DNA from: Escherichia coli
Lineage (GTDB): Bacteria; Pseudomonadota; Gammaproteobacteria; Enterobacterales; Enterobacteriaceae
NCBI RefSeq assembly: GCF_003334385.1
Contig: NZ_QOWN01000035.1
Length of the DNA stretch: 44,545 bases
Reading direction: 5' to 3' (one strand)
Part shown: in pieces, positions 32,126-44,269 of the stretch
Layout of the letters: each line of letters starts with the position of its first letter
Position numbering within the stretch: the stretch's first letter is position 1
Made by a program: the position numbers and the translations under genes
Notes under the pieces: generated by a model
Told to the model about the DNA's origin: nothing
Seen by the model: only the letters and a program-made list of their open reading frames with translations
Databases searched by the model: none

Positions 32126-32612
32126 ACAGAGCATTAGCGCAAGGTGATTTTTTGTCTTCTTGCGCTAATTTTTTGTCAAACACATTACGTCGTTTGCTGA
32201 ATTTACAACCATGCTCAGTATCTCGATAAGCGCAGAGAAATGATGCAATGGTGGGCGGAATGGCTTGATGGGAAGGCTGAGTAATTAATCTTTAATCAGA
32301 GGGTAACAATGCATGGCTCAGTGAACTAAGCCAATCATTTGTGATCTCCAATTGTTAATCTTATTAGTTCTAGATACTTGATTTATGCCATGATGCTTGT
32401 AGATTAGAAAGCAGTAGACTATACAACACTGCGGTCAAATAATTATCAAGCATAATCACGGTATACACATTTTTTTGATAGCGTAAGGATAGTGAGCCAT
32501 CGATGCCATATTCAATATTTATGCAATTTAAGCATGGTTTATATACACTAATTTTCTTAGTGCCCACAAAATCTTTGATTGTACAAAAAACACAGGGGTA
32601 ATGGAGATTTTT

Positions 32613-33779
32613 ATGTTTGACGGATTTAATGGCTTTTTAATTGCTTCTTTATCGGTGATTACTTCACTTTCTGTTGCAAGAATATTTGTCACAGAAACAC
32701 ATTTATCACCTATCAAAGGAAGGAGTGAATCAATTGATGGGCTTAGAGGATTTCTTGCTTTAATGGTTTTCCTTCATCATTCCAGTTTCTGGTGGCAATA
32801 CATACATACTGGGGTTTGGTCTGATCCTGATTCGTTATTTTATACTAATATTGGAAAAATAGCTGTTATTTTCTTTTTTATGATTACAGGCTTCTTGTTC
32901 TTCGGGAAATTGATTTCGAATAAATCAGTAAATTGGGAAGATTTATTTTGGTCAAGAATAATGAGACTAACACCTATGTATCTGGTTTCGTTATCTCTAC
33001 TATTCATAATTGTGTTCTATGTTTCTGATTGGAAAATTAACACAGGAATTGACAATCTCATAATATCTATGGCGAGATGGGTTCCTTTTTCTTTCCTTGG
33101 AATGCCTGATGTTAACGGTCTTCACAAGACGTCGCTTATCATGGCCGGAGTTCCGTGGTCACTTGTTTATGAATGGTTTTTTTATTTATCTCTTCCTTTT
33201 ATGGCTTTTATAATGAGAAGAGACAAATTTAATACTTACACAATTCTTAGTATTGCGAGTGTATTTGCTTTTATTTTCTATCCATCATTAAAAATACATA
33301 TTTTATCATTTGTTTTTGGTTATCTGGCAGCAAAAATAAATCACAAACTGTCTAACGGCTTGCCTTTCAATAAAATATTATCAAGCTTATTCGTCATCGT
33401 TATCTTATGTGTAACTTGTTTTTTAATTCCAAATCCTTACAATCCAATAACAATATCACTCTGTGGTATTGCATTTATTATGATATCAAATGGATGCGAT
33501 ATTTTTGGAGTTCTTAAGATAAAAACCTGTCAAGTTTTTGGAGAAGCTACATATAGCATGTATCTTCTACATGGCATTATACTTTTTATAACATTTAAAA
33601 TAATACTTCCGGTTAGCTATGTTAATCAAATTAACAGCCTTGTATTTTCAGCTATTATTATAATCCTCTCTGGGTTTATCACGCTTATATCATTACTATG
33701 TTTTAGATATATTGAGACACCGTGTAGTAAGTTTAAAAAATTTAATGTACTAACATACACAAGAAGAAAACTTCAGTAA
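32613..33779 (+). CDS. acyltransferase-3 family membrane protein, probable O-antigen O-acetyltransferase (Oac-like), about 388 aa
   Basis: About 10 hydrophobic segments and the AT3 motif R...HH (IDGLRGFLALMVFLHHSS); very AT-rich; sits between the tailspike and att like serotype-conversion genes of P22-like phages. Start at 32613 preferred (GGAG 6 nt upstream) over 32601. Confidence 0.7.
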   Translation: MFDGFNGFLIASLSVITSLSVARIFVTETHLSPIKGRSESIDGLRGFLALMVFLHHSSFWWQYIHTGVWSDPDSLFYTNIGKIAVIFFFMITGFLFFGKLISNKSVNWEDLFWSRIMRLTPMYLVSLSLLFIIVFYVSDWKINTGIDNLIISMARWVPFSFLGMPDVNGLHKTSLIMAGVPWSLVYEWFFYLSLPFMAFIMRRDKFNTYTILSIASVFAFIFYPSLKIHILSFVFGYLAAKINHKLSNGLPFNKILSSLFVIVILCVTCFLIPNPYNPITISLCGIAFIMISNGCDIFGVLKIKTCQVFGEATYSMYLLHGIILFITFKIILPVSYVNQINSLVFSAIIIILSGFITLISLLCFRYIETPCSKFKKFNVLTYTRRKLQ

Positions 33780-33838: not shown

Positions 33839-36175
33839 TCAGATTGGATAATTACTTACTCTAACATCAGCAAAACTAGTTGTTCCTGTCAAGGAAATAT
33901 CCATGCGTTCATCACAAGCAGGAGCAAGAAAAACCTCTACAGCTACACATTCTGATCTTTTAACATGATATATTGCCTGACGCTCAAGCCACGAATTATC
34001 AGATAATAATTTTATTGCAGTATTAGATAACGAATTACCTGTAGAATCCAATTCGCGAAAAATGACCGCCGATGATATTGATGTTTCTGATAACGTCCAT
34101 AGTCTTACATAGACAGCACTTCGTTGAGCTACTCGAAGTGTTGCCACTAATAAACTCTGTACTGATGCGGTATTCTTATCGTTAAGAGTGAATGCATAAG
34201 GCGTACCTACAGGCTTTGTAGTTGCATCTGTTTTCTCTGGCGCAATAGATATAACAGTCTGAAAAAATCTATCCTGATTAGCTAGAATATGACCAGCTAT
34301 GGAACGCATCGGTAGAGGGTTAGTACTATGGACAGCATCACTTCTTCCAACACGAAAACCACCGCCTGTATTCTGGCTATTGGCAGTGATAAATACGTCT
34401 TGGTTATTGTCTACAAACACTTCACCTGAACACGAACTAGTTATGATCTTACCTACAGAGTTAAATCTTGGTTTTATCTCTTGATTGTCAATTCCGCTAA
34501 TTAGTCCAGGCACAAATTCGAATGATACACCAACACCGTTACAGCTAACAGCCGTGATATCTTCAACGTTGATGTCATACCCATTGACAATGCGTACCGC
34601 ATTATTGTTTACCCTTTCGGCATAGACATTTTTAATTCGAATGTGCTGTGATTGGAAGTATGTAGACTCAGAAGGATACGAGTAATTAGTCACGAATATA
34701 CCAGCCAAGCCAGCCACACTGGTTGCTGCAGCAACATACTTTCCACCAAGAACATCAATATTCTCTCCTTGAATTTCAAGAAAATTTTTAGTTGCTTTTG
34801 ATTTTCCTGTTTGAATTCCGATATTGCCAGCAAGGAATACACCACGGCGTGAACCATCCGTAGAGTGATGGCAATCGTTCATGTCGAATGTTTTGCATGC
34901 ATCGATAACCCAATTTTCGCAACCTCTCTTAAAGTCATTCAATGTACGATGGCCGAAAGCAGTGTTGCCGAAACTGAAGATGTTTTTAATGGTATATGTA
35001 CCGTATTCGCCAGGTGAATCAATAGAGCCATTCATACACTTAAATGCATTGAATCCAACAGCGGTAAGCATTGGGTCTGTTCCCTCTGATGAACAATACA
35101 AATAATTAATACCATCAATCATTCCACCATTAGTTGTGTATCCTTCCCATGCTTCATGTGGGCAGTTTTTGAAATGACATCTTAAAGCAGTAATATTGCG
35201 ACCAATGGCACCGTTATTGAAATGCCAGCAGAATGCGCGAATAATCTTCTGCGGCGCAATGTTATTTATTTCGTAACCGTCTTGGTATTGTCCATCAAAA
35301 CAAATATCCTGCAGCATCGCAAAATATAGATCCTTGTCAGGGTTCTTACGGATGAACCAAGAGTAATAGCCAAAGCCATTATTCTCAACGTCTTGCTTTG
35401 TTAGTGAGATTGGTCTGATAGTAGTACTTGACTTACCTGCACCAATCCAATGAAACCAGTCGCCAATTTGCACACTACCACTAAACGAGATCACATCTAT
35501 ACCTCTAAAATCTAGAGGAACCCTTTTATATTCTGATAATATTTGTAATTTATTTATTACCGATGCGCAGTCAACTCCGCTCTGAATGTAGCGACTGCAC
35601 ATGATCGCATCATTGAAATTAGAACCATCCATGACGCATAACCATTGACTATTAAGATTTGGATTTTCTGTTGGCGCTACAGTTTTCGGAAGGGAACCAA
35701 GCCATTGGTAATAAAGTCCATCAGTGTATTTAAGGACCTGTTTTCTATTGGTAATAGTATATCCAGACGCAAAATCGCCATCAATTATTCGACTGTATTC
35801 TGATATTTCGAAATTTCCCTTTGCCCACAAGGAAAACTGATCAGGATCATACTTCAGAACATTCGGAAAATAGAACTGCTGCGCTCCATATGCATCATAA
35901 ACAGCCATCGAATGACCTTGCACAGTTACAAACTTGGCAATCTGCCCGTTATATACAGGATATCCAGCAGCGTTAATGATGATTGGTTGCGATACAGGAA
36001 CATGAGAGCCGTCTTCGTTCTCCACATAAACCTGGATCTGGTTTTCAGTATTTACCGGATCAGTGTCAATTTTTCCGATATAAATCTTTCCATTAGCTAC
36101 GGCTTTAAAAGAACGAGCCATAGTGAAGAGTTGCGAAGGCATGCTTACCACAACATTTGCGGTGATATCTGACAT
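33839..36175 (-). CDS. tailspike protein: P22 gp9-like N-terminal head-binding domain plus divergent receptor-binding domain, about 778 aa
   Basis: From the second ATG (GGAG 7 nt upstream): [42 protein letters not shown]...[15 protein letters not shown]...LKYDPDQFS closely resembles the P22/HK620 tailspike N-terminus; the remaining ~650 aa are divergent and AT-rich. Confidence 0.85.
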
Positions 36176-36270
36176 TTCATTGCTCCAGACGAATGATATG
36201 ATGCAACCATGATGTGATTGCATACCGAAATGGTACTATTGAGTATTTATCCAGTAGGTTACGATGCCAT

Positions 36271-36646: not shown

Positions 36647-39040
36647 CTATTCTGACAGCGCATCAGACTTAGCCCCCTGAGTCAGGGCGTTAATGGCCTT
36701 TTGTGCCTGCTGCATGGCTTTCTCGAACGCTGTTGATCCGCGTGGGGTGTTTGCCATTCGGAGCATTGCATTTCTGAATGGCTCGCTCTCATAGGCGCGA
36801 GTAAGAAGTCCGTAGCTTACCGCTGCGCCAGTTGTCGCAGGGTTCATTGCCGTCCCATACCCGATAATGAACGGGATGGTTTGCTGCCCTGTTGGTGTTG
36901 TTACTGCCGCTTTTGCAGCCTGCTGCGTGGATTGCAGGTAGTTTTTCAATCCTTTCAGATAAGCAGCGTCCTGCCCCTTAAATGTGATGCCAGTCTGGTT
37001 TTGCAGGATGTTAAGCTGCCGAAGGAACTGGTCAGGGGATCCGCCAGATTTCTCCATCGCCTTTCCAATGATGCCATTGCGCATTTGCGCCCTGCCAACA
37101 CGACCAACTGAGTTATACAGCGTCTTAATTTCCGATTTGTTCTTGCTGAATAGCATGTTGTTGACAACTTCCGGCGTCAGATCGCCTTTCATGAGAACAT
37201 TCTTCAGCCTGGTATTCTTTAGTTTCGCGGCTTCGTCAGCGTAGACGGCATTGGCCTGCTGATATTTACGGAGAGTATCGTTGCCAAGATTCTGACCAAT
37301 GGCACCATTGATATCGTCGGTCATTGCCTTGTAAACGCGCTGAATGGCAGCATCGGAACGGTTTGGTAACACTGGTCGCTCACCCTTCACGTCCATTCTG
37401 AACTGGCTGCGCAGATCGCTTAATTGCTTCAAATCCAGATTTACCGGACCATCAGGACCAGCATTGCGAACAAGCTCATCACGATATGACTGAAGTTTTG
37501 AAATTGTCTCGTTATCAGCGACCTTACCAAGCTTCTGCAGATTAGATATTTCTGTATCAATCTGCTGAATTGCTCGCGCTGGCTGAATGTTTACTCCAGC
37601 CATAGCATTCTGAACCTGCTCCAGTCGATTACCGGCGGCACGACGAATTCCTGATGTTTTCGCTTTAAGGCTGTCAATAACAACCGCTGGATCATACTCA
37701 CCGAATTTATCGGCAAATCTCTGCACCAACTGGCTTCTCGCTTCCTGTTGCGTTGCTCTCATTCCGCTTGTGCCAGCCAGGGGGATATTTTCTGCTGTAG
37801 TCTGCGCCATTTTCCCGACGCGGGAAGTAGGCTGTAACAGGTCTGTGGTGTGCAGAGGAACTCCTTCACGCTCTGCAAACCTGATAGCCTGTTGAGCTTC
37901 TGGTGCTATCGAACCACGAACACCACGATAAGCAGAACCTAATCCACGTCCGGCAGCGTTAATAGCACCGCCAGCCAGCACACCAACGCCTAAATCGGTG
38001 GCGAGTGCTTCCGCATCATCTTTCGCACTGTTTGCAGCAAGTGATCCAACTGCGTTTTCTGCTAGAAGGCGAGTTGCCCCCTGAGCAATTCGACCAGCAA
38101 GTGTTGGTGACTGTGTTGCCGCTCTCTCAACGCCAGCAGGAGTGAGGTAAGGCAATGCTTCAGCAAATACCCTTCCCTCTGTCGTTTGTGGAGTCAGCGC
38201 GCCTTGCTGAAGGCCAAAGTCCTGCTCTAATCCCTGCGTTGTTACTCGTGGTGCTGGTTGATATGTACCATCGCCAATGCCGAGTTTACCTCCAGCCCAA
38301 GCCGCCGCGCTTGTTACAGCATCAGTGAGTTCAGCAGGTATGTTCGCTACGTTGATTCCTGCCTGTAGTAAGCCGCGCCCGGTTTCAGCAAGTCCATTAC
38401 CAAGGTCAGACATTATTCCGCCTTGCTGCTGAACAGGTTTCGGTGCGACAGAACTTACGGGTTGAGGTGGCTGCTGACTGGCTGCCTGCTGCTCAATCTG
38501 AGCAAATGGATTATTTGGGTCTGACTGCACGCCTGATGCCGATACTTGTTCGGATGACTGTGCTTCCAGTTGTGCAAACGGGTTGTTAGGGTCTTGCTGA
38601 GGATGTACCTTTGCAGAGGTGGCGCGCTGTTCGACTGTTGAGTCTGTCACCGGGTCACCCGCCCATTGAGCAAAGCGATCATCAACGTAACCGCGGCCTT
38701 CAGATCCTGGCGTATATTCACCACGCTTTGCCTTCATAACGTTGCCGGGACCGTCGTGATAAGCCTGAAGAGCGTCACGCCAGTTACCAAACTGCTGGTA
38801 CATCTTTGCCAGATAGCGCGCGCCAGCGTCAGCCTGATATTCGGGGTTTTGCATTTGCTCATCGGTATAACCCATATCACGCCATGTCCCAGGCATGACC
38901 TGAGTCAATCCTACAGCCCCGGCGGAGCTTACTGCGGCAGGGTTGTAAGAAGACTCCTTGGCACCCAGTGCAGTCATCAACCCTTCTGGCACACCGTAAC
39001 GTGCGCCAGCCTGCTCTAACAAATCACGGTAATTAGCCAT
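36647..39040 (-). CDS. virion ejection/internal protein at the P22 gp16 position, with an N-terminal lytic transglycosylase (SLT) domain, 797 aa
   Basis: N-terminus carries an SLT-like catalytic motif (GAKESSYNPAAVSSAGAVGLTQVMPGTW...YLAKMY), followed by a tandem DPNNPFAQ(L/I)E repeat and a long Ala/Gln-rich region; last gene of the ejection-protein block. Confidence 0.7.
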   Translation of the reverse strand: MANYRDLLEQAGARYGVPEGLMTALGAKESSYNPAAVSSAGAVGLTQVMPGTWRDMGYTDEQMQNPEYQADAGARYLAKMYQQFGNWRDALQAYHDGPGNVMKAKRGEYTPGSEGRGYVDDRFAQWAGDPVTDSTVEQRATSAKVHPQQDPNNPFAQLEAQSSEQVSASGVQSDPNNPFAQIEQQAASQQPPQPVSSVAPKPVQQQGGIMSDLGNGLAETGRGLLQAGINVANIPAELTDAVTSAAAWAGGKLGIGDGTYQPAPRVTTQGLEQDFGLQQGALTPQTTEGRVFAEALPYLTPAGVERAATQSPTLAGRIAQGATRLLAENAVGSLAANSAKDDAEALATDLGVGVLAGGAINAAGRGLGSAYRGVRGSIAPEAQQAIRFAEREGVPLHTTDLLQPTSRVGKMAQTTAENIPLAGTSGMRATQQEARSQLVQRFADKFGEYDPAVVIDSLKAKTSGIRRAAGNRLEQVQNAMAGVNIQPARAIQQIDTEISNLQKLGKVADNETISKLQSYRDELVRNAGPDGPVNLDLKQLSDLRSQFRMDVKGERPVLPNRSDAAIQRVYKAMTDDINGAIGQNLGNDTLRKYQQANAVYADEAAKLKNTRLKNVLMKGDLTPEVVNNMLFSKNKSEIKTLYNSVGRVGRAQMRNGIIGKAMEKSGGSPDQFLRQLNILQNQTGITFKGQDAAYLKGLKNYLQSTQQAAKAAVTTPTGQQTIPFIIGYGTAMNPATTGAAVSYGLLTRAYESEPFRNAMLRMANTPRGSTAFEKAMQQAQKAINALTQGAKSDALSE

Positions 39041-40372
39041 TTACTGCCCCAAAGATGGAAGATATCCGTAGCGATTAATGAAGTCGATTGACAGCTCGGG
39101 GTGCTGCTTCAGGTAATCTATAGAAGCCTGAGGCGCTTCCACTCGCTTGATACCGTTTTGCTGAACGTACTTACCAACCGCCTCATTACGCTTCTGGTTG
39201 AGCGTGTTCAGGATGACGCCAGCGTTGCGACGAAAGGACTCCTCGCTCTGCGAGTTCTGCAGCGAACCAACAGCCTGGTCGAGCTTTTTGCCCTCGGCAT
39301 CAGAAAGTGCGCCCATGCCTCGCATGGCCTGAACCGCTGTCAGGTATGCTTGTGATTTAAAGGTATCAAGTCGTGCCTGAGTGTCTGCAGCCTGTGAGCC
39401 TGGAACGTTGGGGATTACTCCACGTAAGCCTGTAATGCTCTTAAGTGAAGGAGAACTAACGATATCGTTCAGAGTGAACATGCTGGTTGTGATGGTGTTG
39501 ATGCCGTCTTTGTAGCCATCATTTAGCGCTTGCTGCTTCTGCTGCAACTGCTGGTTGTTGGCTGCTATGCGGCTCTGTATTTCCTGGCGCTTCAGGTCGT
39601 TAGTTTCTGCTGATAGCATCCGGTCAAGGCGCTTATTTTCGTTGTTAATGCGGTTTGTTTCTGCGTCCAGATTAATGCGCTGCTGACCTAAATTCGCCTG
39701 GATATCTTGTCCGCGCATTGTGATTGCCTGATTCCGAGCGGCGGTTTGCGAATCCAGATCCTGACCGCGCATGGTAACCTGTCGACCCTGCATTTTATCC
39801 TGTAGGTCAAAGTATTTTTCGGGCCCGAGACTGTTCATCCCCAGGTGATCGACAAATTCGCCGAACTGCCGCGGGTTCTGTTGGTACATCTGAGCGACGT
39901 CATGAGGATTAACGCCAACACGAGCTAACTCACCGGCGTTGTTTTGCAGCCATGATTGCATTGCTTCTGGAGAAGATGACGCAAGACGTGCGCCAGCCGC
40001 TAATGTACCGATAGAATTACGCTGGTCTTCATCAATGAATCCCATGCCTTTACGAACGGATTCAATCTGGTCTGGATATTGAGTAGCCAACTGACGCAAA
40101 GCACCGCGATCACCAGAAGCATAAGCATTAGCGTATGCCTGCTGAAATTCTTTCTGCCGCTGAGCCTGCTTTTCCTGCTGAAACACCCCCGCAATACCTG
40201 AAAGGCCTTGCAAAGCAGTCAGCCCAACATTGTTAGCGCCTGAACGCTCAATATCATTGTTCTGCCTGATAAGCTGAAGCGTATTGCCGATGTCATTTAC
40301 GCTCGGAGCGTTTGAGTTGACGCCGCCGATACCAGCCAACAATCCGCCGTTTGTTCCTTGCCAAGTAGCCAT
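39041..40372 (-). CDS. ejection protein at the P22 gp20 position, 443 aa
   Basis: Called by position and size (P22 gp20 is of similar length) and by Gln/Asn-rich low-complexity composition; stop abuts the start of the next gene (coupled). Confidence 0.55.
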   Translation of the reverse strand: MATWQGTNGGLLAGIGGVNSNAPSVNDIGNTLQLIRQNNDIERSGANNVGLTALQGLSGIAGVFQQEKQAQRQKEFQQAYANAYASGDRGALRQLATQYPDQIESVRKGMGFIDEDQRNSIGTLAAGARLASSSPEAMQSWLQNNAGELARVGVNPHDVAQMYQQNPRQFGEFVDHLGMNSLGPEKYFDLQDKMQGRQVTMRGQDLDSQTAARNQAITMRGQDIQANLGQQRINLDAETNRINNENKRLDRMLSAETNDLKRQEIQSRIAANNQQLQQKQQALNDGYKDGINTITTSMFTLNDIVSSPSLKSITGLRGVIPNVPGSQAADTQARLDTFKSQAYLTAVQAMRGMGALSDAEGKKLDQAVGSLQNSQSEESFRRNAGVILNTLNQKRNEAVGKYVQQNGIKRVEAPQASIDYLKQHPELSIDFINRYGYLPSLGQ

Positions 40373-40381
40373 GATTACCCC

Positions 40382-41074
40382 TTAAAACAACGAGCCAAGC
40401 AATCCGATACCAGCACCAATTCCAGCGCCCCAAGGCGTTGATGTTCCCAAAAGGCTGGCAAGACCTGCACCGGCAATCGCACCAGACGTGCCACCGCTAA
40501 TTGCAGTCTGAAGACTTGATGGTTTGTTGGCATTAGCAGCGGCAAGAGCTGCGCTTTGCTGTGCAATGCTGCTCATGTTGTTGGCGTACGTCTGCCCGGC
40601 GTTTGCCTGACCTTGCAGAGCACCAAGCCCAACGTTTGCCAGATTGTTGTAATTGCTCATCTGGTTTGATAACCAAGACTGACCGAGAGTCGGCGCGATC
40701 GTAGCCAGTTGATTGCTTGTGGCTGTCGAACCAAGTCCACCCGTCGCCTCCGCAGCAGCGAGACTCTGGTAACGCGCCTGACCTGCAAGGTCTTTATACT
40801 GCTGAGAGTTGTAATACTGATTAAGTGCCTGCCCCTGACCTTCTAAACTGGAAAGGTTCTGAAGCTGGTTAACATACTGTTCCGCAAGAGGCGTGAACGG
40901 AGCAAGGTTTTTCATGATCGTCTGCCACTGCTGATTTTGCAGGTCTGCTGCATACTTCTGAGCTTCTGCGGCATACTTTGCGCTTTTATCAGAACTGCCA
41001 CCTTTCCCACCCTTTTCAGGGCAATAAGGTTCCTCGCCGCGCAGTTTTCTGCCCAGCTTAAATGCATATAACAT
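40382..41074 (-). CDS. ejection protein at the P22 gp7 position, 230 aa
   Basis: Size and position match P22 gp7; Gly/Ala-rich C-terminus ending in a hydrophobic tail (GAGIGAGIGLLGSLF). Confidence 0.55.
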   Translation of the reverse strand: MLYAFKLGRKLRGEEPYCPEKGGKGGSSDKSAKYAAEAQKYAADLQNQQWQTIMKNLAPFTPLAEQYVNQLQNLSSLEGQGQALNQYYNSQQYKDLAGQARYQSLAAAEATGGLGSTATSNQLATIAPTLGQSWLSNQMSNYNNLANVGLGALQGQANAGQTYANNMSSIAQQSAALAAANANKPSSLQTAISGGTSGAIAGAGLASLLGTSTPWGAGIGAGIGLLGSLF

Positions 41075-41076
41075 GG

Positions 41077-41532
41077 CTATCTCCCGTGATTCAGGAAGTC
41101 GATTAGTTCTTCGCGTGTGGCGCTGTAAAAAGTCACGTCATCCACGCCTTTGAAGTATTTCTTGATGGTTCCTACACGCTTAAGGCCAATCATTGCGCAG
41201 TACATCTGACCGTGGCGGAATTTGCGTGCAGCGAACGATGTTACGCACTGAACGGTGGTGTTAGTCAGAATGTATCGCCAGAACGCCAGCCCGATTTCCT
41301 TGCTGAATCCACGAACCTCTGGCAGGTACATGGCGTGGCAATCGAATGTCAGCGGCTGAATCTCCTGATAGTAAACAATGCCGCCGAACTGCCCGTGCAC
41401 GTTCACCTCAAAGTAACGGCAATCATGTTTATAGTCGTATCCATCACCGTTGTTGCTCCCGGCAATAATGTCAGGGTGATTTCCGACTGCTTCGATCAGG
41501 TCGATGTTTCGCGTTGGTTTGAACTGAATCAT
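41077..41532 (-). CDS. hypothetical virion-associated protein at the P22 gp14 position, 151 aa
   Basis: Position between tail needle and ejection genes; translationally coupled (ATGA overlap) to the tail-needle gene. No family recognised. Confidence 0.45.
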   Translation of the reverse strand: MIQFKPTRNIDLIEAVGNHPDIIAGSNNGDGYDYKHDCRYFEVNVHGQFGGIVYYQEIQPLTFDCHAMYLPEVRGFSKEIGLAFWRYILTNTTVQCVTSFAARKFRHGQMYCAMIGLKRVGTIKKYFKGVDDVTFYSATREELIDFLNHGR

Positions 41533-42380
41533 TACTGCTCCGCGATTATCTTGATGGTTGTGGCAGTAAACGCCGCACCATTTGACTGAATGGTTAACGT
41601 ACTGCCATTTGTGGCAAGAAAGCCGTCTTTATCCACGCTGAAGAACGTAGCTAACAGGATGTTATCGGTTGTTGTCGCCGCATTACGACTGCTGACCAAC
41701 GTGTCAGGAACAGAGCCGGAAAAGGTTAGCTGCATTGATCTGTTGGCGGTTCCGCTGGGCCACGTCCCGACAATCGACAGCTTGAAGAACAAGGGTTTGT
41801 TCTCGTTGAACACAACCATCTTGTTGTTAACGGTGTCGAAGAATGGTGCCAACGTTCCGGATGACGGCGTGAGCGTTTTCAGCAGGCTAACAAGGTTGGT
41901 CGGCGCTGTCGGGATGGTTACTGATACGCCAGAGTAAACAACCTCTGACTTCTTGCGAGCAGTGGCATACTCCAGAGCATCGATGCGCGTTTCATGGTCT
42001 GAAACCTGCGATTCCAGCGACTGAACTCTGGTATCAAGCGACGCAATATCGCTTTCATTCTGAGCTATTCGTGTTTCATGTTCCTGAAGAGTTGATTCTG
42101 CCTGGCTGATTCGCTCCTCATGATTAACAAGCGTTGCTTCCGCAGCAGAAATTCGCTGCTCATGGTCAGCGAGAATCACATCCTGCTCATCGTTCCTGAC
42201 CTGTGCATCATAAGCGCCCTGTCCGGCCTCGTTGGCCTTGTTAGCCACGTTACCAACATCAGTGCCCTGTGCGATAACGTAAAGCAGATACGACTGCGAG
42301 AAGATATTGCGTGGAAGGACTGATGTGTCGAGCCGTGTAGCCTGAATGATTACCGGCACATTGAGATTCGAATCCGCCAT
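41532..42380 (-). CDS. tail needle protein (P22 gp26-like) with an extended C-terminal domain, 282 aa
   Basis: N-terminus ...[60 protein letters not shown] resembles P22 gp26 (PVVIQATRLD...[14 protein letters not shown]...[17 protein letters not shown]); heptad-like repeats, then about 120 extra C-terminal residues. Confidence 0.8.
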
Positions 42381-43798
42381 TACTCAATCCTTATCTGAGC
42401 GCCAGACAGAGTGACAGGTGACTTCGTGATAACGCGCAATTTGAAGCCGACATTTTTCCTGATACGCCCGACTCGCTTCCACAAAACACGCTTGTCGTAA
42501 ACGAACGGTTCATTCTGCTCAATCATCTGCTCACGACCGTAATTTATGCCGTCAGTGGTTGCAGAGAGAAAAAGGCGGTCAGCGTACTGAGCAACGCCAG
42601 TTGACGATTCAACCTCAAGGTCGAACACTCTGGCGTTATCCGCTTTGAAGAGTGGAGTAAACAGCAGGTGTTCCTGTTGCTTGTCGTACTGGCTGCTGAT
42701 ATCGAACTGCAATTTCCCGGTCACGGATTCCAGCTTATCGCCGCACGTTATTTGGTTGCCTTCGTAAATGAAGTCGATAGCGCGGTACACATCGTCATAC
42801 AGGCCCGTTTTCAGCACACACCATTGCGGACCATTAGCGCTTGAAGATGCGTCGTACACCAGAACATGGCGCGGAAGGTGGATAATCAGCAATTCATGAG
42901 CATCAAATCGCAGCGATTCCATCACGCCATCAGCCAGTTCATCAGCAGTGTAGGAGCGGAGTATTTTCTCAATGCTCGCGCTGGCGATTGGTGATACCTG
43001 ACCGGAACCGATGATATACACAGACGGCGCACCTGTTGCCGGATTGCTGATGAACGCATACGAATCAGCGAATGGCGTTTTGCAGTAAGTCCCGGCGATG
43101 CCTTTTTGCACCATCAGCGATGGCTGTGCGACATACAAAGCGGCACCAACAGTGGTTGCACCTGTCAGGGAAAAATATTCAATCGTCGATGAACCAAAGC
43201 AGACGATGAAGTCTCGCCATGTTCCGATGCCGAGGATACCGTCCGGCTGCGATTCTGCGCGATATTGTGCGCTGTAACGGTCAGGATGCGATTCGTCTTC
43301 AAGGTCAGTGATAAACCATGAATCCGTGCCGTCTTTTGACCACGCATAACGCCCACGTAAGCGTGTAATGTCGCGGACTGAACCTAACTCATACTGCGTG
43401 AATCCGCTGTCTGTAGGCCAGTTTGAGACGGTTTTAACCGTGCCATCATAGCGGTATTCGACCAGTTGACCATTAACGCCTACCGCCTGTGATGTTCTAC
43501 CATGCGCCATTGATACGCGACCACTTCCGGCAACATCACCGACTTCACTTTCTCCTTTGTACAGCTTGCCGCCACACACGCGATAAACAGCACTCTGCGC
43601 CATGTTGTACTCAACTCCGCGCGATACGCCGTTTACATCAGAACGTTTTGCAATGCCAGGGAATGAGCGAAGATATCCGCTGCTGTTCAGGATTTCTTTG
43701 GGTGTAGCCAACATATTTACTGGCAGATAGTCGATATAGTCGGCGTTTCTGAAATCTTTGCCGACGCCTTTCATGAGCGGAAGTTGCTGAATCGGCAT
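42380..43798 (-). CDS. tail accessory factor gp10-like, 472 aa
   Basis: [49 protein letters not shown]... matches the recalled P22 gp10 N-terminus and its length (472 aa). Confidence 0.8.
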
Positions 43799-43807
43799 TT
43801 ATTCACC

Positions 43808-44269
43808 TCACGTACTCGGATCATCTTTCTCGATGTAAAACCGATTCCACGTAAACGCGCTTTTGTTACCACTACCGCGAGGCATGTCATTTCGCCGCTC
43901 AAGTGGTGGTATTTTGGTTAAAGCGATACAGATTGTCTGATATGCGCTGTCGGCAGCGGTAAGGAGAGCGTCTGCCGGCTGAATGACGTTATCCATGCAC
44001 ACTTGCACAGCGAGTTTCAAAGCGACGCCATCATTTGCCCATGCAGGGATACCTGAATCATCGTCAGGTAACGGCATGATGCCGTTTTCTGTATCAGCAA
44101 ACTGATACCCAAGCTCGATACCTTTCGCCTGCCATGCTGCCATCATGTCTTCGAGGTCATTAATGGCATCTTCAATTGCCTGAGGGTCAGCATCTGTCAA
44201 CGTGGCATTGGAATACAGCCCGGCTTTTCGTAAAGCCTTTAGAACGAGATCACCCTTCGTTTTCGCCAT
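43808..44269 (-). CDS. tail accessory factor gp4-like, 153 aa
   Basis: N-terminus (MAKTKGDLVLKALRKAGLYSNATLTD...DLEDMMAAWQAKGI) resembles P22 gp4; sits directly upstream of gp10 as in P22. Confidence 0.7.
   Translation of the reverse strand: MAKTKGDLVLKALRKAGLYSNATLTDADPQAIEDAINDLEDMMAAWQAKGIELGYQFADTENGIMPLPDDDSGIPAWANDGVALKLAVQVCMDNVIQPADALLTAADSAYQTICIALTKIPPLERRNDMPRGSGNKSAFTWNRFYIEKDDPST

Follow-up and report, generated by a model that had tools for sequence, protein, structure and literature searches.

A Sf6-type tail needle with a TNF-like knob in a P22-like prophage of Escherichia coli

Within a stretch of 44,545 nucleotides from Escherichia coli (the window, i.e. the whole of the DNA that was analysed), an open reading frame at 41532..42380 was originally predicted to encode a phage tail needle with a long C-terminal extension, which was thought to end in a globular knob and possibly to contribute to host range. 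The locus raises the question of what kind of needle this is, of how its C-terminal part relates to the tips of known needles, and of whether that part has any bearing on the choice of host. The frame itself is real: on the minus strand (the strand was absent from the original prediction) it runs uninterrupted from ATG to TAA, coding for 282 amino acids plus stop, while the plus-strand frame over the same positions is riddled with stops. The reported length difference from gp26 of phage P22 (282 against 233 residues) is also correct.

The closest characterised relative is gp9 of Shigella phage Sf6 (NP_958185), which matches the protein from end to end at 97.5% identity, without a single indel and with only seven substitutions (R92S, D100E, S113A, T141A, T196P, S234A and S270A). 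Both proteins have 282 residues and are built alike from a plug, a coiled coil and a TNF-like knob, the difference being that Sf6 is a phage of Shigella flexneri, whereas the gene described here lies in an E. coli prophage. The family assignment is equally clear, as the protein covers the whole of Pfam model PF16532, "Sf6-type phage tail needle knob" (Phage_tail_NK; model positions 1-175 of 175, E 5.8e-116, 384.7 bits), and matches PHROG 1030, 'tail needle knob', at E 1e-134. In phmmer searches, residues 130-282 match the crystal structure of the Sf6 knob (3RWN; E 6e-89, 149 of 153 residues identical) and that of the knob of E. coli prophage HS1 (4K6B; E about 2e-88), and residues 1-144 match P22 gp26 structures. 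NCBIfam lacked dedicated models for the needle and the proteins encoded beside it, and returned only weak coiled-coil matches (SMC, RNase Y, PspA) far under the cut-offs. There is very little doubt that the product of this frame is a trimeric tail needle belonging to a P22-like prophage (Lederbergvirus) of the E. coli chromosome, and that it is an allele of Sf6 gp9 and the HS1 needle. The trimeric state is something we infer from the heptad repeats of the shaft and from the near-identity to knobs that crystallised as trimers, the structure model described below being that of a monomer.

The predicted anatomy follows that of known needles. The N-terminal domain (codons 1-60, 42201..42380, minus strand) was said to resemble the P22 gp26 tip that plugs the portal channel, and indeed 49 of its 60 residues (82%) are identical to residues 1-60 of P22 gp26 in an ungapped comparison, while residues 3-64 match the plug fragment of the in-situ gp10-gp26 structure (8EAP) at E 1.7e-27; by this likeness it would be the part that plugs the channel of the tail hub (gp10). 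It is followed by a coiled-coil shaft (codons 61-140, 41961..42200, minus strand) of about five 14-residue double-heptad repeats (xRIxxxExxxxxHE), corresponding to the helical core of P22 gp26. The expected heptad-like periodicity is evident from self-comparison of residues ~68-140, which peaks at offsets of 7, 14, 21 and 28 (25 self-identities at offset 14 versus 0-6 outside the multiples of 7), and from a core position that is occupied by L, I or V throughout (LILILIIVVI). The remaining C-terminal part (codons 141-282, 41535..41960, minus strand) is the TNF-like jellyroll knob. Its description as a non-repetitive region rich in Ser, Thr and Asn stands (these residues make up 33% of the C-terminal 142 residues versus 21% of the rest of the needle, and self-comparison of these 142 residues found no internal repeat), but its size had been put at ~120 residues, while it actually comprises ~140-143 and starts at ~141-144.

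A structure model points in the same direction. AlphaFold2, run on the monomer with a 9-sequence alignment, gave a mean pLDDT of 84 without any segment below 50, and predicted an unbroken helix at 42-141 (pLDDT 93-97) followed by a beta-rich domain at 144-282, so that the C-terminal part is predicted to be neither disordered nor a continuation of the coiled coil. In a Foldseek search of the PDB the best matches to the model were 4K6B and 3RWN (target TM 0.90-0.91), in agreement with the globular knob of Sf6 type that had been proposed and with the TNF-like jellyroll, which is the fold class described for it (PMC3741392). At lower ranks came P22 gp26 (through its helical part), and then PRD1 P5, TNF-family ligands, C1q heads and BclA. 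The matches to PRD1 P5, TNF, C1q and BclA-type folds have E-values of 4e-5 to 4e-4, a target TM of 0.5-0.6 and a sequence identity of 7-15%. Trimeric knobs of this jellyroll fold class (PRD1 P5, adenovirus fibre, C1q, BclA) bind receptors, whereas the Sf6-type knob is without a known receptor (PMC3741392).

It is the relation of this knob to the P22 tip that the original wording got wrong. The gp26 needles of P22 and HK620 (2POH, 3C9I, 5BU5) resemble the present protein in their N-terminal plug, coiled-coil shaft, position in the late operon and plug-and-release role, but both have 233 residues and end in an unrelated C-terminal tip domain. Alignments of the needle to the P22 and HK620 structures end at about residue 144-146, and over residues 141-233 the ungapped identity to P22 gp26 is 8%. 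The needle does not, in other words, carry a P22-type tip (~90 residues, 141-233 of P22 gp26); these P22 residues have no counterpart in it, and the knob is to be read as a domain replacement instead of an extension. For the same reason HK620, which had been suggested as a source of a knob for comparison, is unsuitable, since its gp26 has the P22-type tip (PMC3741392); the second knob of which the structure has been solved is that of prophage HS1. The knob of the HS1 needle is near-identical to the one described here (E 1.9e-88), and A270 is common to both, whereas HS1 has a needle of 317 residues, of which the shaft is longer by 35 residues, i.e. by five heptads (PMC3741392). The needle of phage Gally is also of this 317-residue long form, with 35 extra shaft residues and a near-identical knob. 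Since long shafts thus occur together with near-identical knobs in both Gally and HS1, the coiled coil varies by insertion of whole heptads while the knob is kept constant.

The resemblance to the solved knobs extends to their ligands. In the crystal structures, three L-glutamates are bound between the knob subunits, through contacts (in Sf6 numbering) with E146, K200, S248, D250, L255 and K277 (Leavitt et al., PMC3741392), and a phosphate-binding S-R-N triad at the distal tip comprises residues 266-268 in HS1, equal to 231-233 in Sf6 (PMC3741392). All nine of these residues occur at the same positions in the present needle, including S231-R232-N233. The contact residues are intact, and the binding of the ligands by this protein is a prediction that follows from them.

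The surroundings of the gene are those expected for a P22-like late operon. All on the minus strand, and in the order of Sf6, HK620 and P22, the window contains the head-to-tail adaptor (homologue of P22 gp4 and Sf6 gp7; 43808..44269, PHROG 637 at 1.9e-69, syntenic with Sf6), the tail hub or head closure protein whose channel the needle would plug (homologue of P22 gp10 and Sf6 gp8; 42380..43798, PHROG 578 at 9e-229), the needle, a gp14-type DUF2824 protein directly downstream (41077..41532, PHROG 651 at 1.4e-77, annotated as DUF2824 in E. coli prophages), the ejection proteins homologous to P22 gp7 (40382..41074), gp20 (39041..40372) and gp16 (36647..39040), and, at the end of the late gene run, a tailspike of 794 amino acids (33839..36223). 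The three ejection proteins were assigned through PHROGs 598, 2534 and 770 (for the gp7, gp20 and gp16 set), and also through synteny with Sf6 genes 11-13. The place of the needle gene between the gp10 and gp14 homologues matches that of the P22 gp26 family, and both of its junctions (gp10-needle and needle-gp14) are TAATG overlaps, which are implied by the Sf6 coordinates as well.

On the other side of the tailspike, the end of the prophage adjoins ybhB and bioA of the E. coli chromosome; the G+C content is 46% in the prophage versus 53% in the chromosomal part of the window, and a tRNA scan found no tRNA gene at the border. The opposite end of the window (44545) falls within the prophage, a short way upstream of the gene for the gp4 homologue, which leaves the head, portal and terminase genes out of view. 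Between the tailspike and ybhB/bioA, at the edge of the prophage, lies a plus-strand gene (32601..33779) for an O-acetyltransferase of 392 amino acids (PHROG 3333), which, like oac of Sf6, probably serves lysogenic conversion by modifying the O-antigen. The gp16-type ejection (DNA transfer) protein has 797 amino acids, compared to about 665 for Sf6 gp13, and has an additional lytic transglycosylase (SLT) domain at its N-terminus (residues ~1-107), ahead of a gp16-like body (108-797); this is a fusion that RefSeq already lists for E. coli prophages under the name 'lytic transglycosylase domain-containing protein'.

By analogy with P22, Sf6 and HS1, the way in which such a needle works can be sketched. 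In these phages the channel of the hexameric tail hub is closed by a quasi-six-fold plug of N-terminal helical hairpins, by which the DNA is retained (PMC9728967), and the knob extends beyond the tailspikes and makes contact with the outer membrane (PMC3741392, PMC9400499). In the present prophage, three chains would accordingly assemble into a parallel coiled-coil fibre (a homotrimer), the N-terminal end of which would plug the portal-tail channel and hold the packaged DNA. Upon infection, the tailspikes would cut the O-antigen, after which the knob end would contact the outer membrane, and release of the needle would then open the channel for the ejection proteins (the gp7, gp20 and gp16 homologues) and the DNA. 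The tip domain may, on this analogy, set the speed at which DNA delivery begins, rather than the choice of host.

The latter point bears directly on the suggestion that the knob, as the first part of the virion to touch the cell envelope, might act as a receptor-binding domain and contribute to host range. The knob does have the fold of the receptor-binding knobs of adenovirus and PRD1 (Foldseek; PMC3741392), Sf6-type knobs were in 2013 confined to Escherichia and Shigella phages among the P22-like phages (PMC3741392), and a specific role in native Shigella infection was left open by the authors of that study (PMC3741392). In the same work, however, chimeric P22 with the knob of either HS1 or Sf6 infected Salmonella efficiently, single and double mutants of the glutamate site were normal in plating and K+ release, and P22 could do without its tip domain in the laboratory; K+ release was slowed by several alterations of the tip, an effect that the authors read as control of the kinetics of DNA delivery (PMC3741392). 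The mutations that expand the host range of Sf6, moreover, lie without exception in the tailspike, where the proposed contact with OmpC has been placed too (PMC9400499). Knob sequences are also near-invariant (differing by at most 4.9%) compared to the variable bodies of tailspikes, which counts against such a role because a determinant of host range would be expected to vary. No later paper assigning a receptor to the Sf6-type knob was found in the literature searched. Taken together, the published data on knob swaps, tip alterations and tailspike mutants disfavour a host-range role for the knob, which we therefore consider quite unlikely. The tailspike is a more plausible host-range determinant of this prophage than the needle knob. 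Only in its head-binding domain at the N-terminus (residues ~17-131) does this tailspike match the many tailspike families, while its receptor-binding body is divergent.

Whether the needle contributes to a virion at all is a separate matter, since Sf6-type needle genes also occur in small P22-like remnants, as seen in more than 100 E. coli genomes (PMC3741392), and the present copy could likewise be a relic in a defective remnant. That the window stops before the head, portal and terminase genes, and that the exact allele was found on just three contigs, would fit with this. Against it, the needle gene and the late genes around it, eight at the least (including those for the tailspike, the three ejection proteins, gp14, gp10 and gp4), are intact and syntenic with their overlaps preserved, and closely related complete prophages are present in complete genomes. 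In addition, codon differences between the needle gene and Sf6 gene 9 are 25 synonymous versus 7 non-synonymous, a ratio from which it follows that the gene has been under purifying selection. A relic is therefore unlikely. A different doubt concerns two of the substitutions that set this allele apart, T141A and T196P, which are absent from the 12 other 282-residue cluster members that were sampled and from the 8 phage homologues that were aligned. T141A is located at the shaft-knob junction. P196 lies at a loop-strand border just before a predicted strand (197-206), four residues ahead of the glutamate contact K200, at a position that is Thr in 7 of the 8 phage homologues and Asp in the other. 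The two could be sequencing or assembly errors, or could destabilise the knob, given that T196 is otherwise conserved in the P22-like knobs compared, is close to K200 and has been replaced by proline, which is unusual. On the other hand, the identical protein occurs under several NCBI accessions and on three contigs, and since it is the same protein on all three a one-off sequencing error is unlikely, while the knob domain with P196 is still confidently predicted and superposes on 3RWN. We consider either form of this explanation very unlikely, and see no reason to expect a functional change from T141A or T196P.

Needles of this kind are common in the species. The exact protein is present in NCBI under several accessions (e.g. 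OWD75009.1, "tail needle knob protein [Escherichia coli]"), the three contigs carrying it being from draft assemblies, and it belongs to a 90%-identity cluster of 3,620 members. Among 5,426 complete E. coli genomes, 487 (~9%) carry the needle gene, with at least 80% of the gene covered, under the annotation "tail needle knob protein"; an identical gene was not found in these complete genomes, the best match having 98.7% nucleotide identity. In a survey from 2013, 69 of 164 P22-like phages and prophages had an Sf6-type tip, with knobs that differed by at most 4.9%, and all of these were from Escherichia or Shigella (PMC3741392). The 90%-identity cluster also lists 153- and 159-residue 'DUF2824 family' proteins that are apparently unrelated to the needle, and which are probably a clustering artefact tied to the adjacent, overlapping gp14 gene.

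The needle is, in short, already known, with a Pfam family of its own and routine annotation by the NCBI pipeline, and the finding matters little beyond correct annotation. The role of the knob and its three bound L-glutamates in the native host is a question that concerns the family as a whole, and it is not made easier by this copy. That T196P or T141A might alter the stability of the knob or its L-glutamate pocket seems highly improbable; if they did, the allele would be a natural variant usable to probe the bound glutamate and the role of the knob in native Escherichia and Shigella infection.
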